From the sequence record MZ189262.1: a stretch of DNA of 64,000 bases, one strand, 5' to 3'. This document shows positions 23,619 through 28,352 of the stretch, piece after piece; within the stretch, counting starts at the first letter, position 1, and each line of letters begins with the position of its first letter. The stretch is from Escherichia phage W143. The translations under genes were made by a program, and so were the position numbers. The notes under the pieces were generated by a model that was given only the letters and a program-made list of their open reading frames with translations, did no database searches and had not been told where the DNA came from.

Positions 23619-23650
23619 ATGGGGACCTTTCGGTCCCCATATTTTTATTT
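23619..23650 (+). terminator. intrinsic terminator after gene 54
   Basis: GGGGACC-TTTC-GGTCCCC followed by ATATTTTTATTT. Confidence 0.75.
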
Positions 23651-23935
23651 ACGGAACGAAATAAAAGCAGCAACTGAAGCAACTAAACTGTCTTCAATAT
23701 AAACTTCAATTTTTACTGGAGCTTCTGACTCAAATTTACCTGTTACTACACCTTGGAAAATACTTTCAGTCTGCTCTGGCTTTGAAAAATTTTCAGAAGG
23801 AAAAATTCCGAACTTTTTATCTGTTCCAAAAATTTTGATAAATTCATCATAAACTGCTTCATTAAAAGCATTATCAGCAGGAATAACGCCTTCAACTACA
23901 AGTTCTTGACCTAAAAAGCGTAAAGAAGATTTCAT
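23645..23935 (-). CDS. hypothetical protein downstream of alt cluster (alt.-3 position)
   Basis: 96 aa; own early promoter and repeated leader upstream. Confidence 0.6.
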   Translation of the reverse strand: MKSSLRFLGQELVVEGVIPADNAFNEAVYDEFIKIFGTDKKFGIFPSENFSKPEQTESIFQGVVTGKFESEAPVKIEVYIEDSLVASVAAFISFRK

Positions 23936-23943
23936 TTTGTGTT

Positions 23944-23996
23944 CCTCATGTTATGTCAGTAAGACTACTATAACACAACACGAGGGACTTGTAAAC
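23944..23996 (-). repeat. 53-bp promoter-leader repeat, copy 1
   Basis: CCTCATGTTATGTCAGTAAGaCTACTATAACACAACACGAGGGACTTGTAAAC; one mismatch to copy at 39060-39112. Confidence 0.8.
23967..23996 (-). promoter_or_regulatory. early promoter for the 96-aa ORF (copy 1 of repeated promoter-leader)
   Basis: - strand GTTTACA, 17 nt spacer, TATAGT; leader carries GAGG RBS. Confidence 0.65.
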
Positions 23997-26053
23997 TACA
24001 TTTTGAACTTTTTAGACATTCCGTTGATGTTAACCAAAGAAGCCAAGATTTGAGAAACTTCGTTTTCCTCTTCTTTTGATTCTTCTACAAGGAATTGATT
24101 AAACCCAGTCATTGGACGAACTTCACCAGTTTCCATTAGATGGTCGCCATCATATACCGATTCTTCTAATTGTTCAGAAGGAGGAACGATTGTGCCTTCG
24201 ATTAGATACTTGTTATAAGCAGTTTCTTTCATCATGTACGTACTCACTTTATTAATCTTCAGCAAAATTCCACGTGGTAAAATAACTTCAGCTTCTGATG
24301 GAAATCCTGATAAATGACCTGGAACGATAACTTTGATTCGCTCAGCTCCTTTAATTACCATACCCACGCTAGTTTCAGCATCTTCATTCGCATAAGCAGA
24401 GTGACTGCCCATATGCATTAAATCTTCTGCATCAACTGAACCTTCTCCTTCACCAGAAAATACTGCGCCGGAATCATCTAGAGCCATATAGTTTTTACCA
24501 TACTCACCGAAGATATTTGGTTTAAGCGATGTGGATACGAAGTTCTTGAAGTAGAACATTTTATTTTCAATATTATGACGTAAAGTTTTAAAGGTAACTT
24601 CTTGCCCACGGTAAAGTGTAGTTCCTGGAGGAAGAACTGATCCTTTGGCAAAGGCAGAATCCATTGTCTCGATGTGTTTAATAGCTCGTTCCATATATTC
24701 TTCACGAGTAGAATCTGGTTTACCCAAAAGGAACGAGTTCATTTCAACATATGAATCTGCACAATAATCTTCAATTACATCGGACTCAGCCTGAGTTAAT
24801 CCTTTTGGGGGTACTTCAGTACTTGCATATTCATACGCTTGAGAAGCAGACTCATTAATCAATTTATAAATGCCATTCATGACAAATTGAATAATAGCTA
24901 CCTTTTCATCTGGCGTGGCTTTAGAACCTTTAACTAAATCATTGACAATTTTCTTAATAACATCAAAGCTATTAGAAATATTAATGTCAGCAAGATCGCT
25001 TAAAATTTTATCGGTTTTATAATCAAAGAATTCTTTATTCTTTAAATATTCTTGAGAACCTTGATATGTTATATCGTTCTGCAATCTGATAGACGGATCA
25101 CGTAAACGTGCATGGGCCAATGCAATATGATTTCGGAAGCTTTCTAGTTCATAATCGTTAGATTTAAAACGAGAAGCACTTCTCATACCACCGATAGCTC
25201 CTTTGCTGAAGTTTGAACCAATCTGAATAACGCCAGAGTTCATTGGTCCTTCTGCTTTATATACCGGAACTTTAGATTCAAACTCTTGATATTTCTTAGC
25301 AGCGAAGCTATCGCCCTGAAGTGAAGCATCGACAGTAGAGTATTGAGCTTGTGCTGCTAATCGACGACTAATTTTAGTTTTCTGAATAACAGCTTGATCC
25401 GTACGCTTATCATTTTCTAAAGCAATAGAAGCAGCAACAGCAACAGCTTTAGGAACAGCATTACCTGTTTTAACGTCTACATAAACATCACCAACCTTTG
25501 ATTCAACTTTTGTGAATAACTCAGTTGAAATAGGAGGTACACCTGGAATGTCTTCTAAATTGGCATTTTTACGGTAAACCATAATATATGCGTACTTTTT
25601 ATCGTAATCCCAGATTTCCTTTAAAAGAACATATCGACCTGCTCCTTTAGTACGTACTAAACGGTCAGCGATAACTTGCATTTGACGAGCTGCACCGTTT
25701 GTTTTACTCTTTAGTACGCGGAATAAGCATGCATCAATTTTATACTGTTTCATTGTCTGAAGAGCGGTATCAAAAACCGCATTAATGACACCAATTGGAT
25801 TTCCACCTAAGTTTTTAAGTTTAACTAATGATAGTTTCTCGTTGACACCTATCATTACGATATGCATCATTTTATCGCCTGGCTTAACGTTTTTGTTTGT
25901 ATCACCGCCAGAGGTGTATGTACAAAATCTAAATCCAGGAAGCACGCTTTCTTCACCGGCTTGAATAGCAAAAATTTGAGGTATTTTATGCTTAGGATTT
26001 AAGTTAACAACCGGCGCCGAAGCGCCGTCAAATAATTCTGTAATAAGTTCCAT
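23996..26053 (-). CDS. Alt-like ADP-ribosyltransferase paralogue (second copy)
   Basis: 685 aa; N-terminus MELITELFD; R-S-E motifs (LYRGQEV, FVSTSLKPNIFG, EAEVILPRG); 3 nt downstream of alt. Confidence 0.85.
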   Translation of the reverse strand: MELITELFDGASAPVVNLNPKHKIPQIFAIQAGEESVLPGFRFCTYTSGGDTNKNVKPGDKMMHIVMIGVNEKLSLVKLKNLGGNPIGVINAVFDTALQTMKQYKIDACLFRVLKSKTNGAARQMQVIADRLVRTKGAGRYVLLKEIWDYDKKYAYIMVYRKNANLEDIPGVPPISTELFTKVESKVGDVYVDVKTGNAVPKAVAVAASIALENDKRTDQAVIQKTKISRRLAAQAQYSTVDASLQGDSFAAKKYQEFESKVPVYKAEGPMNSGVIQIGSNFSKGAIGGMRSASRFKSNDYELESFRNHIALAHARLRDPSIRLQNDITYQGSQEYLKNKEFFDYKTDKILSDLADINISNSFDVIKKIVNDLVKGSKATPDEKVAIIQFVMNGIYKLINESASQAYEYASTEVPPKGLTQAESDVIEDYCADSYVEMNSFLLGKPDSTREEYMERAIKHIETMDSAFAKGSVLPPGTTLYRGQEVTFKTLRHNIENKMFYFKNFVSTSLKPNIFGEYGKNYMALDDSGAVFSGEGEGSVDAEDLMHMGSHSAYANEDAETSVGMVIKGAERIKVIVPGHLSGFPSEAEVILPRGILLKINKVSTYMMKETAYNKYLIEGTIVPPSEQLEESVYDGDHLMETGEVRPMTGFNQFLVEESKEEENEVSQILASLVNINGMSKKFKM

Positions 26054-26056
26054 GAT

Positions 26057-28111
26057 TTATCCTTGAACGAACTTGTAAGGCATGTTTGTAATATCTATGC
26101 AAGACGCAATAATTCCGAGAGATGATTCTGCTTTCTGTTTAACATTTGATGAAACAAATGATGCAAAGTCAACTCTGTCTTCTATTTCAATATCATCTGT
26201 CATTGCAACCAATTCACCAGTTTCCATTAGACGATCACCGTCATAAATTACCGATTCGGTGAGTTCTTCCGTAGTCATAACTTCAGCTTGAATAAGCTTG
26301 TTGTTAGTTTTAACTGTTCCATCATTGTAAGATGCATCGGTTATTTTATTAATTTTGACCATTAGTCCACGTGGCAAAATGACTTCCATTTCATTTGAAG
26401 GCGCTAAACTTCCACCGGGTAAAACAACATTGACTTTATCAGCTCCAGTAATAACCCATCCAATTCCAACTAAATTATCGCTAGAATTAACAAGCCCTTC
26501 ATCATTTTTATCGATAGAAATGCTTAGACGCTTTTCATCTGGTAAAACACCCACAGCTGAATCAGTCATCCAAGTACCAAAAATGTTTGGATATAATGAT
26601 GTTGATACAAAATTTCTAAAATAAAAAACTCGATTTTTTACCAATGCTTCATATATTGAAGGTAACATTCGCTGTGAACGATATAAAGTAATACCTTTTG
26701 GCAATCGATCACCATTTTTAAAGGCTGAATCTAAATTATCGATGGCTTGTTCTATTTCGGGTGCTGTCAAAATACTTGTACGCTCATCTGGATTATATAA
26801 TCCCAAAAGAGCATTATTCATGTCTACATATCCTGAACCCACATATTCACGAATTCCGCGTTTTTGAGCCGGTGTGTATTTAGATGAATCTTTATTTTCG
26901 ACTATAGAATGCAATGACCATCCAACGGTAAGAGCATATCCACGTAATTCTCTTCGAATAATCTTTGTTTTTATTGCATTCCAAGAATTTTGCACTAACT
27001 CATTTGCAGCATCTTGATTTAAATGCGAATGCTTGTTAATATTTCTTTCTAACCAAGCACTTTTATATTTTTCTAAAGTATCATCGACTATAGAAGCAAT
27101 AGTTTCTAAAGTTTTTATTGAAGTAATAGATTCTTTTCGTAATCTTTCTAAAGCTTTATTTTTTATTTCTGCATTAACATCAGATTCTTTATCTTCAGGA
27201 ATTATAGAAGCTTCTCTGAATGCCATTCCAGCTGTAACACTATTAAGAGCATTTTCTAATGCAAATCCTGAAGTAGAAATAACGGTTAATTCGTTAGCAT
27301 CAGAAATTAAAGGCGCGTCGGCGGGTTTATTTAATTCTGCTGCTGAAGCCTCAAATTTTTGAAACATTGGTGTTTCAAATCTAGAAGATTCCAATGACTG
27401 ACTTTGTGCAATTGCTCTACGTGAAATTTTAACTTTAACTATTACAGCCTGGTCAGAACGTTTATCGTTTTCTTGCGCAATAGATGCTGCAATTGCCTCA
27501 TTTTTAGTTACTTGAACCCCAGTATCTTTATTGATATAAACATCGCCGACTTTCGATTCAACTTTAGTAAAGAGCTCGGTACTAATTTCCGGAACTCCTG
27601 GAATGTCTTCTAGTGATACATTTTTGCGATGTATAAGAATATATGCATACTTTTTATCATAATCCCAGAGTTCCTTAAGAAGGACGTATCTGCCGCCTGA
27701 ACGACTACGGATAAGTCTATCAGCAATAACTTGAATTTGACGAGCTTGACCAGCAGTTTTAGACTTAAGAATACGAAGCATGCAGGCATCAATTTTATAC
27801 TGACGCATCGTCTGCATTGCAACAGTAAAAACTGAATTGATATAATTAATTGGGCTTGGACCGAGACCTTTCAATTTAGCAATTGAACCTTTAGCAGTTA
27901 ATGTAAAAGGAACAATATGCATCATTTTATCGCCCATTTTTAAATCGCGATTAGTATCACCTCCAGATGTATAGGTACATAAACGAAAGCCTGGTTGTTC
28001 AATTGCGTCATCAACATGAACTGAAAAAATTTGTGGTATTTTCTTCTTTGGATTTAAGTTTGTAATCGGAAGAGTAGTATCTTCGTCAAATAATTCTGTA
28101 ATAAGTTCCAT
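26057..28111 (-). CDS. alt: Alt ADP-ribosyltransferase (capsid-packaged)
   Basis: ORF track 26057..28114; start likely second Met (MELITELFDEDTTLPITNL); R-S-E motifs (LYRSQRM, FVSTSLYPNIFG, EMEVILPRG); TATAAATA late promoter upstream. Confidence 0.9.
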   Translation of the reverse strand: MELITELFDEDTTLPITNLNPKKKIPQIFSVHVDDAIEQPGFRLCTYTSGGDTNRDLKMGDKMMHIVPFTLTAKGSIAKLKGLGPSPINYINSVFTVAMQTMRQYKIDACMLRILKSKTAGQARQIQVIADRLIRSRSGGRYVLLKELWDYDKKYAYILIHRKNVSLEDIPGVPEISTELFTKVESKVGDVYINKDTGVQVTKNEAIAASIAQENDKRSDQAVIVKVKISRRAIAQSQSLESSRFETPMFQKFEASAAELNKPADAPLISDANELTVISTSGFALENALNSVTAGMAFREASIIPEDKESDVNAEIKNKALERLRKESITSIKTLETIASIVDDTLEKYKSAWLERNINKHSHLNQDAANELVQNSWNAIKTKIIRRELRGYALTVGWSLHSIVENKDSSKYTPAQKRGIREYVGSGYVDMNNALLGLYNPDERTSILTAPEIEQAIDNLDSAFKNGDRLPKGITLYRSQRMLPSIYEALVKNRVFYFRNFVSTSLYPNIFGTWMTDSAVGVLPDEKRLSISIDKNDEGLVNSSDNLVGIGWVITGADKVNVVLPGGSLAPSNEMEVILPRGLMVKINKITDASYNDGTVKTNNKLIQAEVMTTEELTESVIYDGDRLMETGELVAMTDDIEIEDRVDFASFVSSNVKQKAESSLGIIASCIDITNMPYKFVQG

Positions 28112-28134
28112 CATATCCTCTCTAGTGTTTATTC

Positions 28135-28142
28135 TATTTATA
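28135..28142 (-). promoter_or_regulatory. late promoter TATAAATA (alt)
   Basis: - strand TATAAATA about 20 nt before the alt start. Confidence 0.7.
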
Positions 28143-28167
28143 AAATTAAAGGCCCGAAGGCCTTTAA
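28140..28167 (-). terminator. terminator after gene 30 operon, before alt late promoter
   Basis: - strand AAAGGCC-TTCG-GGCCTTT followed by AATTTTAT. Confidence 0.55.
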
Positions 28168-28352
28168 TAATCTATTGGTAAGAGAGTACGGTATATTTCA
28201 AACTTTGGACCTTTTTCATAGGCATCAAATGTTTCTGTGAATTTATTATAAGCATATGCATCTATAAATTCAATCATAATTTGTGATACAGAAGTAGAAA
28301 CATCTCCACCTTCTTTTTGAGCAACGACAATTGTTTCTAAGTAAGCTTTCAT
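28164..28352 (-). CDS. hypothetical small protein downstream of gene 30
   Basis: 62 aa ORF overlapping gene 30 stop; terminator hairpin follows. Confidence 0.5.
   Translation of the reverse strand: MKAYLETIVVAQKEGGDVSTSVSQIMIEFIDAYAYNKFTETFDAYEKGPKFEIYRTLLPIDY

Follow-up and report, generated by a model that had tools for sequence, protein, structure and literature searches.

The tandem genes alt and alt2, found in the 64,000-nt stretch of Escherichia phage W143 DNA analysed here (the window; record MZ189262.1), form a pair that is already known and that most members of the genus Tequatrovirus carry. As judged by alignment, alt2 is the intact form of the T4 genes alt.-1 and alt.-2, and the pair looks unusual because the reference phage T4 lost most of alt2. 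[quoted passage not shown] The novelty of the pair implied by the preliminary description was not upheld, since a full-length alt.-1/alt.-2 gene is normal in this phage group; the second copy is that gene and is already annotated, under the labels "Alt-like (x2)", "alt.-2", and "Alt2".

The ORF listing and a motif scan confirmed that two 685-codon frames on the minus strand, separated by 3 nt, follow a single late promoter (Table 1). The junction between alt and alt2 reads TAA-atc-ATG in the ORF listing and the sequence, and the Shine-Dalgarno sequence of alt2, AAGGA, falls within the 3' end of alt. The alt ORF begins MMELITELFD with an extra ATG; since the T4 annotation uses the second Met, the T4-equivalent start of alt is position 28111. 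The order of the locus, gene 30/alt.1 - alt - alt2 - alt.-3/gene 54, is the same as in T4.

Table 1 Features of the alt-alt2 locus and their positions in the window
Feature	Position	Strand	Description
alt, T4-type Alt ADP-ribosyltransferase (AltA)	26057..28114	-	685-codon ORF, upstream gene of the pair
alt2, second Alt-type ADP-ribosyltransferase (AltB)	23996..26053	-	685 aa, downstream gene
Alt2 N-terminal alpha/beta domain	25349..26053	-	aa 1-235, includes the MELITE propeptide-like start
Alt2 hypervariable helical middle, candidate substrate-recognition module	24794..25348	-	aa 236-420
Alt2 catalytic ART domain	24179..24793	-	aa 421-625; R482, S507-T508-S509, E587-x-E589
Alt2 C-terminal tail with invariant YDGDxLMETGE motif	23999..24178	-	aa 626-685, predicted disordered
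T4-type late promoter TATAAATA	28135..28142	-	precedes the alt/alt2 pair
GC-rich hairpin AAAGGCC-TTCG-GGCCTTT	28148..28165	-	overlaps the stop codon of alt.1; immediately upstream of the promoter
Bidirectional intrinsic terminator, alt.-3/gene 54 intergenic	23619..23640	both strands	9-bp stem, 6 GC pairs
alt.-3 (DUF5498), downstream neighbour	23645..23935	-	PF17602 E = 1e-64; 100% identical to T4 Alt.-3
alt2 stretch absent from T4	24016..25705	.	blastn of T4 region against the window: two HSPs, 9-nt overlap in T4

The late promoter upstream of alt is the sole minus-strand copy of its motif between 17.4 kb and 33.6 kb, and the motif occurs 17 times in the whole window against 8.9 expected. The GC-rich hairpin beside it, which was read directly from the sequence and carried no flag in the consensus terminator scan, may serve as a terminator of transcription arriving from upstream. 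No terminator-like site between alt and alt2 appeared in the terminator scan, and the first terminator past alt2 is the bidirectional hairpin that follows alt.-3. At the level of sequence signals, alt and alt2 are transcribed in one direction from one late promoter. The neighbour alt.-3 has its own sigma-70/early-like promoter (TTTACA-17-TATAGT, 23995..23967) and, by promoter logic, would stand outside the late alt operon.

Comparison with T4 identifies the upstream gene as orthologous to T4 alt: it has the same locus and late promoter, and AltA and T4 Alt (NP_049811) are 95.9% identical over 684 aa. The T4 product alt.-1 (NP_049810) aligns with Alt2 residues 1-56 at 95% identity and alt.-2 (NP_049809) with residues 62-116 at 98%, whereas the two share just 58-62% identity with AltA. 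They thus represent the same gene at the same position, which is destroyed in T4 and intact here. The statement in the preliminary description that this place in T4 is occupied only by short alt.-1/alt.-2 ORFs is borne out by the T4 annotation, and the T4 GenBank note describes them as an ancient duplication of the beginning of alt. What remains of alt2 in T4 amounts to 358 of 2,058 nt: the gene carries a 1-nt frameshift and has lost 1,699 nt between the 9-nt near-repeats CTAAAGAGT (25706-25714) and CTAAAAAGT (24007-24015).

Of about 500 Tequatrovirus records, roughly 400 have the second gene intact; T2, RB27, and AR1 are among them. Both genes are covered in 380 of the 504 matching records. 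The stretch lacking in T4, used as a 1,690-nt query, was found in 401-408 phage records (401 when at least 80% of the query had to be present). Similarly, tblastn retrieved AltB orthologues at 80% amino acid identity or more in 402 records, 396 of them at 95% or more, followed by a gap down to <60%. The T4-type deletion junction occurs in 90 records, among them RB55, RB59, ACG-C40, HY03, and SG1. Orthologues of Alt2 include bas36_0031, bas37_0032, and bas42_0031 of the BASEL phages, whose annotation is the source of the name "ADP-ribosyltransferase Alt2", RB27_193 ("alt.-2"), AR1_201, and T2 EcT2_00208; these are 685-aa proteins with shared synteny that show no difference of substance from Alt2. 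The nine orthologues checked have 97-99% amino acid identity, as judged from 9-21 non-synonymous differences per 685 codons (dN 0.006-0.013). A frameshift or stop in the second copy was considered, and the frame proved to be intact here and uninterrupted over 685 codons in nine of nine independently sequenced genomes. With dN/dS of 0.038 overall and <0.09 in each region, the middle having 0.083, alt2 is, on these codon comparisons, under strong purifying selection. Both alt and alt2 are full-length genes that selection has maintained.

Both proteins match Pfam PF03496 (ADPrib_exo_Tox) well above its gathering cutoff of 23.4, AltA with 119 bits (E = 2e-34) and AltB with 72.7 bits (E = 3e-20; residues 414-620), and both match phrog_802 end to end (Alt, E = 1.5e-263; Alt2, E = 2.8e-255). 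The assignment of PF26846 (Tevenvirinae_ADPRT) to the N-domain comes from the precomputed annotation of 97-98% identical homologues and of hybrid proteins. [quoted passage not shown] In the AF2 model of Alt2, the middle region is all-helical and the ART domain mostly has pLDDT of 74-92, with some 10-residue blocks at 58-69, while values fall below 50 across residues 629-685. Foldseek matched this predicted structure to Vis toxin, C3bot, CDTa, VIP2, and iota-like toxins (E = 6e-8 to 1e-5), with a TM(target) of about 0.6 for the ART region. Together, alignment and model show a predicted C3/VIP2-type ART domain in both Alt and Alt2, with a site typical of arginine-specific mono-ADP-ribosyltransferases. 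The C3-like and binary-toxin ARTs (C3bot, Vis, VIP2, iota/CDTa) share with modelled Alt2 the catalytic-domain fold and the R-STS-ExE residues. T4 ModA and ModB also have the R, S, and ExE residues; unlike Alt2, however, they are proteins of about 200 aa, 18-19% identical, that have neither the N-terminal domain nor the helical middle, and they are early proteins that are not packaged (PMC5512222).

Alt and Alt2 share 41% identity overall (BLASTP, E = 8e-158), which is distributed unevenly along the chain. The conserved N-terminus described for both copies is supported by 68% identity over residues 1-235, and the common MELITELFD start is identical also in nucleotides (28 of 28). The identity drops to 13% in the middle (236-420) and is 35% in the ART domain (421-625) and 44% in the C-tail, and the ARTT-loop sequences are unlike. 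The pair members differ almost entirely in the helical region directly before the catalytic core, which is also the variable cassette that distinguishes T4-type from T2-type Alt alleles and thus speaks for separate specificities. The strong divergence that had been proposed for the middle and the extreme C-termini holds for the middle and for the last ~40 residues, but YDGDxLMETGE (aa 634-644) within the C-terminal region is invariant. Alt2 has the length of T4 Alt and the same succession of domains, from the N-domain through the helical middle and the R-S-ExE ART to the C-tail, as well as its MELITELFD start, YDGDxLMETGE motif, and C3/VIP2-like fold. It departs from T4 Alt in the ARTT-loop and in sequence, with identities of 41% overall, 13% for the middle, and 35% for the ART domain.

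T4 Alt is injected with the DNA and ADP-ribosylates the alpha subunit of host RNA polymerase (Arg265) and other host proteins. It is a 40-copy head protein that undergoes gp21 processing at its N- and C-termini (PMC9026906). Alt2 carries (L/I)-x-E motifs of the gp21 type at ITE(6) and LME(641)/TGE(644), cleavage being known for T4 Alt alone (PMC9026906). Across 19 homologues, neither E6, within ITE, nor the C-terminal LME/TGE motif varies, the invariant columns of the C-tail being Y634, D635, G636, D637, E641, G643, and E644. By analogy with T4 Alt, Alt2 may be cleaved at LME. Searching the literature for virion proteomics and for proteins that phages inject, we found no paper reporting Alt2 experiments on packaging, cleavage, injection, enzymatic activity, targets, or phenotype. 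A transposon screen of Bas37 highlighted bas37_0033, the upstream Alt, and did not mention Alt2 (bas37_0032).

From its sequence, Alt2 is probably a second late-made, arginine-specific ART that is delivered by the capsid and has its own substrate module. Alt2 would be produced late and incorporated into the prohead core like Alt. The gp21 protease would trim it at (L/I)-x-E sites close to both ends, and it would be kept in the head and carried into the host with the DNA, where it would ADP-ribosylate arginines of host proteins. The variable middle and the differing ARTT-loop region would set its targets apart from those of Alt. On some hosts Alt2 may thereby broaden takeover or counter-defence, and on others it may be dispensable; the existence in nature of phages with the T4-type deletion indicates that it is dispensable, and we propose that the T4 lineage could lose alt2 for this reason. 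The earlier suggestion that both copies are capsid-targeted and that the divergent middle confers a different substrate agrees with all findings here, and we infer the same. This idea is already in print (PMC13600099), and papers from 2006, 2014, and 2026 noted alt duplications and proposed expanded targets.

It is unlikely that Alt2 only backs up Alt or raises its dosage, modifying RNA polymerase alpha and the other Alt targets with no qualitatively new effect. Common catalytic motifs, a common overall architecture, and the loss of alt2 from the T4 lineage at no known cost would fit such a copy, but the middle and ART regions are only 13% and 35% identical, the ARTT-loops differ, and Alt2 is kept at 95-99% amino acid identity in about 400 genomes with a dN/dS of 0.04, whereas a redundant duplicate would be expected to decay or be homogenised. 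An identical target set is doubtful because the middle and ART regions diverge, and divergence from Alt under strong constraint is the pattern expected of a distinct, specific function. A late promoter alone would suit an Alt2 that stays unpackaged and acts in the producing cell late in infection, for instance by modifying proteins of the host or the phage as virions assemble or the cell lyses, and no proteomic report of Alt2 in virions was found in the literature. We regard this as quite improbable, given that the first nine residues are those of the Alt propeptide region (28/28 nt), that the N-domain is 68% conserved, and that the C-terminal motif at the gp21 processing position of Alt is invariant (PMC9026906); propeptide-like ends and the N-domain would serve no evident purpose in an enzyme that stays outside the head.

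The T4 lineage, in which T4 and about 90 relatives keep just a wreck of alt2, might suggest a decaying duplicate, a pseudogene in the making, and the hybrid Alt/Alt2 proteins in some metagenome assemblies might suggest an assembly artefact. Both are extremely unlikely. The 685-codon frame is intact here and in nine of nine phages, with a dN/dS of 0.04 and about 400 records, and an assembly duplication is implausible because the longest exact repeat common to alt and alt2 is 28 nt. These observations effectively refute decay or artefact.

Beyond the likely role of Alt2 as a packaged and injected ART, we tentatively raise the possibility that the Alt family comprises polymorphic capsid-delivered effectors, with a constant N-module of ~235 aa, gp21-cleaved ends, and a swappable middle-plus-ART cassette, and that Alt2 hits a target not visible in T4. 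The N-domains of T4-type and T2-type Alt alleles are 97-100% identical, whereas their middles are 11-36% identical. In addition, the Alt2 N-domain shares 68% identity with the neighbouring Alt versus 44% with the N-domain of the closest effector relative of Alt2, from phage JS10, while the reverse holds for the middle and ART, which are closer to the JS10 relative than to Alt. Weak fold-level matches to the N-domain also occur in large non-ART phage proteins. The N-domain and the cleaved ends would then constitute a head-incorporation/ejection module, and the helical middle and ART an exchangeable targeting cassette, of which at least five or six types (T4-type Alt, T2-type Alt, Alt2, and others) would be in circulation. 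Most Tequatroviruses would deliver two different ARTs simultaneously, and the target of Alt2 would be a host component, possibly of an immune system. If true, such a target would have been invisible to 50 years of T4 genetics because T4 has no alt2.

As a sequence feature, the pair changes nothing. The model phage T4 is the exception, since T4 and about 90 close relatives carry the alt2 deletion, and because T4 lost alt2, a conserved, constrained, and probably injected ART has escaped experimental study. [quoted passage not shown]

The window keeps a T4-like gene order across 23.6-29.8 kb, in which the two long minus-strand ORFs encode the T4 Alt orthologue (Alt, upstream) and a second Alt-type ADP-ribosyltransferase (Alt2, downstream). 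The spacer between them reads TAA-atc-ATG (stop, 3 nt, start), and the AAGGA Shine-Dalgarno of alt2 lies inside the 3' end of alt. The alt ORF opens with an extra in-frame ATG (MMELITELFD), the T4 annotation using the second Met. Ahead of alt, a GC hairpin overlapping the alt.1 stop codon is followed by the late-promoter box, and no terminator was found between alt and alt2 by consensus scan, the next one lying beyond alt.-3. With this ORF pair, a single nearby late promoter, and no intervening terminator, the preliminary description of two co-oriented 685-codon frames, 3 nt apart behind a late promoter, is confirmed as written. On either side of the pair, alt.1 matches PF24647 'Phage_blade' (E = 7.5e-29), and alt.-3 encodes a DUF5498 protein 100% identical to T4 Alt.-3, C-terminal extension mutants of which escape the CmdTAC defence system (PMC11618068).

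Features of the alt/alt2 locus (window coordinates) and parts of the Alt2 model (residues)
Feature	Position	Strand	Remark
Genes 48 and 54	within 23.6-29.8 kb	+	
alt.-3, two long ORFs, alt.1, DNA ligase gene 30	within 23.6-29.8 kb	-	
Bidirectional hairpin terminator	23619-23640		beyond alt.-3
alt.-3	23645-23935	-	
alt.-3 promoter	23967-23995	-	sigma-70/early-like, TTTACA-17-TATAGT; directly past alt2 stop codon
alt2 ORF	23996..26053	-	685 codons
Direct repeat	24007-24015		CTAAAAAGT
Query for stretch missing in T4	24016-25705		1,690 nt
Direct repeat	25706-25714		CTAAAGAGT
Alt2 aa 1-240	25334-26053		Foldseek query
First 28 nt of alt2	26026-26053		ATGGAACTTATTACAGAATTATTTGACG
alt ORF	26057..28114	-	685 codons
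First 28 nt of alt	28084-28111		ATGGAACTTATTACAGAATTATTTGACG
T4 late-promoter box	28135-28142	-	TATAAATA; sole minus-strand copy for many kilobases
alt.1	28164-28352	-	5' of late promoter
Alt2 alpha/beta N-domain	aa 12-225		AlphaFold2 model
Alt2 all-helical middle	aa 250-470		AlphaFold2 model
Alt2 ART core	aa 475-625		AlphaFold2 model
Alt2 disordered tail	after ART core		AlphaFold2 model

Both proteins match PF03496 (ADP-ribosyltransferase exoenzyme; Alt E = 2e-34, Alt2 E = 3e-20) in Pfam and, end to end, PHROG 802 'Alt-like RNA polymerase ADP-ribosyltransferase', while NCBIfam and PADLOC gave no match for either. The catalytic Arg, Ser-Thr-Ser, and Glu-x-Glu are invariant among Alt, Alt2, T4 Alt, ModA, and ModB, so that the full R-S-E set claimed earlier for both copies stands on alignment; the same residues are invariant over 19 Alt homologues. 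Over their whole length, Alt and Alt2 are 41% identical, with 68% in the N-terminal 235 residues, 13% in aa 236-420, 35% in the catalytic domain, and 44% in the C-tail. The sequence ahead of the ExE turn reads HLSGFPSEAE versus GSLAPSNEME in the Alt/Alt2 alignment. At the DNA level, the first 28 nt of the two genes, encoding MELITELFD, are identical (28/28), and the genes are highly diverged outside this start. Such identity suggests that the propeptide or the translation-initiation region is constrained, or that gene conversion has acted locally. The AlphaFold2 model of Alt2 (pLDDT 75.5) has four parts, and Foldseek groups its ART core with Vis toxin, C3 exoenzyme, CDTa, VIP2, and iota-like toxins. 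A PDB sequence search with Alt2 returned nothing at E <= 0.01, and thus there is no solved Alt-family structure to lean on.

T4 Alt is 95.9% identical to the upstream protein and 41% identical to the downstream one. The preliminary description had only short alt.-1/alt.-2 ORFs annotated at this position in T4, and this was borne out: alt.-1 (62 aa) is 95% identical to Alt2 residues 1-56 and alt.-2 (68 aa) 98% identical to residues 62-116, compared with just 58-62% for both against Alt. T4 DNA aligns to the window on either side of a gap. A 1-nt deletion at about codon 55 of alt2 splits alt.-1 from alt.-2, and T4 lacks a further 1,699 nt between 9-nt near-identical direct repeats, with the junction at L001:11105-11113 (L001 being T4), leaving 358 of the 2,058 nt of alt2. 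In its GenBank record, T4 alt.-1/alt.-2 is explained as an old duplication of the beginning of alt, with a stop codon. By the matches, the frameshift, the deletion, and this record, the window holds the intact alt2 and T4 its wreck.

Selection on alt2 was estimated from nine genomes (the window, pSs-1, Bas36, Bas37, Bas42, T2, RB27, AR1, and HEMP5), all of which carry it as an unbroken frame of 685 codons. Mean pairwise dS was 0.20 and dN 0.008 (dN/dS 0.038), with regional dN/dS values of 0.016 in the N-domain, 0.083 in the middle, 0.029 in the ART, and 0.027 in the tail. By this estimate, all parts of alt2, even the one least like Alt, are under strong purifying selection, which, with the intact frames, excludes a decaying duplicate or pseudogene. 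An assembly artefact was likewise rejected, given nine intact genomes and no exact alt/alt2 repeat exceeding 28 nt. Nor is the T4 deletion a laboratory accident: its full-length junction is found in 90 records, including the natural isolates RB55, RB59, ACG-C40, HY03, and SG1, and it is an allele that circulates in the T4 sub-lineage.

The intact pair is widespread. The 4.8-kb locus matched 504 phage records by megablast, 380 of them with both genes covered, and many bear the annotation 'Alt-like RNA polymerase ADP-ribosyltransferase (x2)'. The query from the part that T4 lacks matched 408 records (T2, RB27, RB3, AR1, and HY01 among them), with at least 80% of the query covered in 401. By tblastn, 402 records carry an Alt2 orthologue of at least 80% amino acid identity, mostly 95-99%, separated by a gap from the next matches at <60%. 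The gene already bears the names 'alt.-2' in RB27, 'alt' in AR1, and 'ADP-ribosyltransferase Alt2' in the BASEL phages Bas36, Bas37, and Bas42. In print, alt duplications were remarked in 2006 for 44RR, RB49, and T4 alt.-1/alt.-2 (PMC1524935) and in 2014 for JS98, Bp7, Ac42, and ZZ1 (PMC4177764), and a 2026 paper reported the Tequatrovirus pair as 'two paralogous Alt-like proteins... 43.29% identity' and proposed an expanded target range (PMC13600099). From this prevalence, these names, and these reports, the second copy is the usual full-length form of alt.-1/alt.-2 in phages of this group (~400 records), and its implied novelty falls away. The preliminary description was right on the identity of the genes and on the state of T4, but the arrangement is the common one in the genus and has already been annotated.

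The upstream gene occurs in Tequatrovirus as two alleles that are 72% identical, a T4-type of 682-684 aa (the window, pSs-1, Bas36, and AR1) and a T2-type of 697 aa (T2, RB27, Bas37, and Bas42). When the window alt was compared with the DNA sequences L004, L005, L007, and L008, T4-type and T2-type Alt were 97-100% identical in the N-domain, 11-36% in the middle, 51-74% in the ART, and 89-100% in the tail. Other middle/ART types are present in metagenomic homologues (P0009, P0013-15, P0016/18, and P0017). Outside the N-domain, Alt2 is nearest to the Alt of Dhakavirus JS10 (middle 46%, ART 55%, tail 63%), whereas its N-domain is 68% identical to the neighbouring Alt and 44% to JS10 Alt. This pattern suggests that Alt2 may be an old effector lineage with within-genome homogenisation or shuffling of its N-domain. 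Hybrid proteins that pass from an Alt-type N-terminus into Alt2 sequence near residue 108, 195, or 215 were seen in L011:4001-6055 (a Logan SRR24155011 contig), P0004, and P0007 (L012). In L011, the hybrid is the sole alt gene between alt.1 and alt.-3, which is what unequal crossing-over between tandem paralogues would be expected to leave, although hybrid genes of this kind may instead be assembly chimeras.

When 1.84 billion representative proteins were searched with a profile of the N-domain, just 73 families matched, and in all but the two weakest matches the matched stretch starts within the first ~35 residues. The recognisable C-terminal domain is always a PF03496 ART, families P0182, P0183, P0180, and P0187 being without a Pfam domain, and no fusion to a non-ART effector was found at the sequence level among the 73 families drawn from these representatives. 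In Foldseek, the Alt2 N-domain matched (E = 1e-7 to 1e-4, TM about 0.5) the N-terminal portions of large phage proteins that are not ARTs, comprising uncharacterised proteins of Erwinia phiEa2809, Dickeya RC-2014, Vibrio VP-1, and Agrobacterium Atu_ph07 and including proteins named zeta-toxin-domain and deaminase-domain. Because the profile search returned no non-ART fusions, a possible kinship with the zeta toxin and deaminase proteins, based on the predicted fold, stays a lead only.

T4 Alt is made late, is incorporated into the prohead core at ~40 copies, is trimmed by the gp21 protease at a short N-terminal propeptide and at its C-terminus, and enters with the DNA to ADP-ribosylate host proteins, among them RNA polymerase alpha (PMC9026906, PMC5512222). 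T4 Alt has recently been implicated in escape from Mokosh type I; the same HIDEN-SEQ preprint mentions a Bas37 'Alt' with 'notable sequence differences' and leaves bas37_0032 (Alt2) undiscussed (bioRxiv 10.1101/2025.11.20.689424). That 'Alt' is not Alt2, as bas37_0033 is the upstream T2-type Alt. For virion proteomics or function of the second Alt, we found only genomic remarks in the literature (PMC1524935, PMC4177764, PMC13600099) and no experiments on Alt2. Alt2 shares with T4 Alt the MELITELFD start, in which Glu6 is invariant and part of an I-x-E context, the conserved N-domain, and the invariant tail motif YDGDxLMETGE (L-x-E), which by analogy plausibly serve the Alt-type packaging and injection route. 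Alt2 would then be packaged into the head, cleaved, and injected in active form. Its 13% identical middle and differing pre-ExE sequence, together with the variability of the same region elsewhere in the family, suggest that its substrate range may differ from that of Alt. On the best reading, Alt2 would be a second head-packaged, injected, arginine-specific ART.
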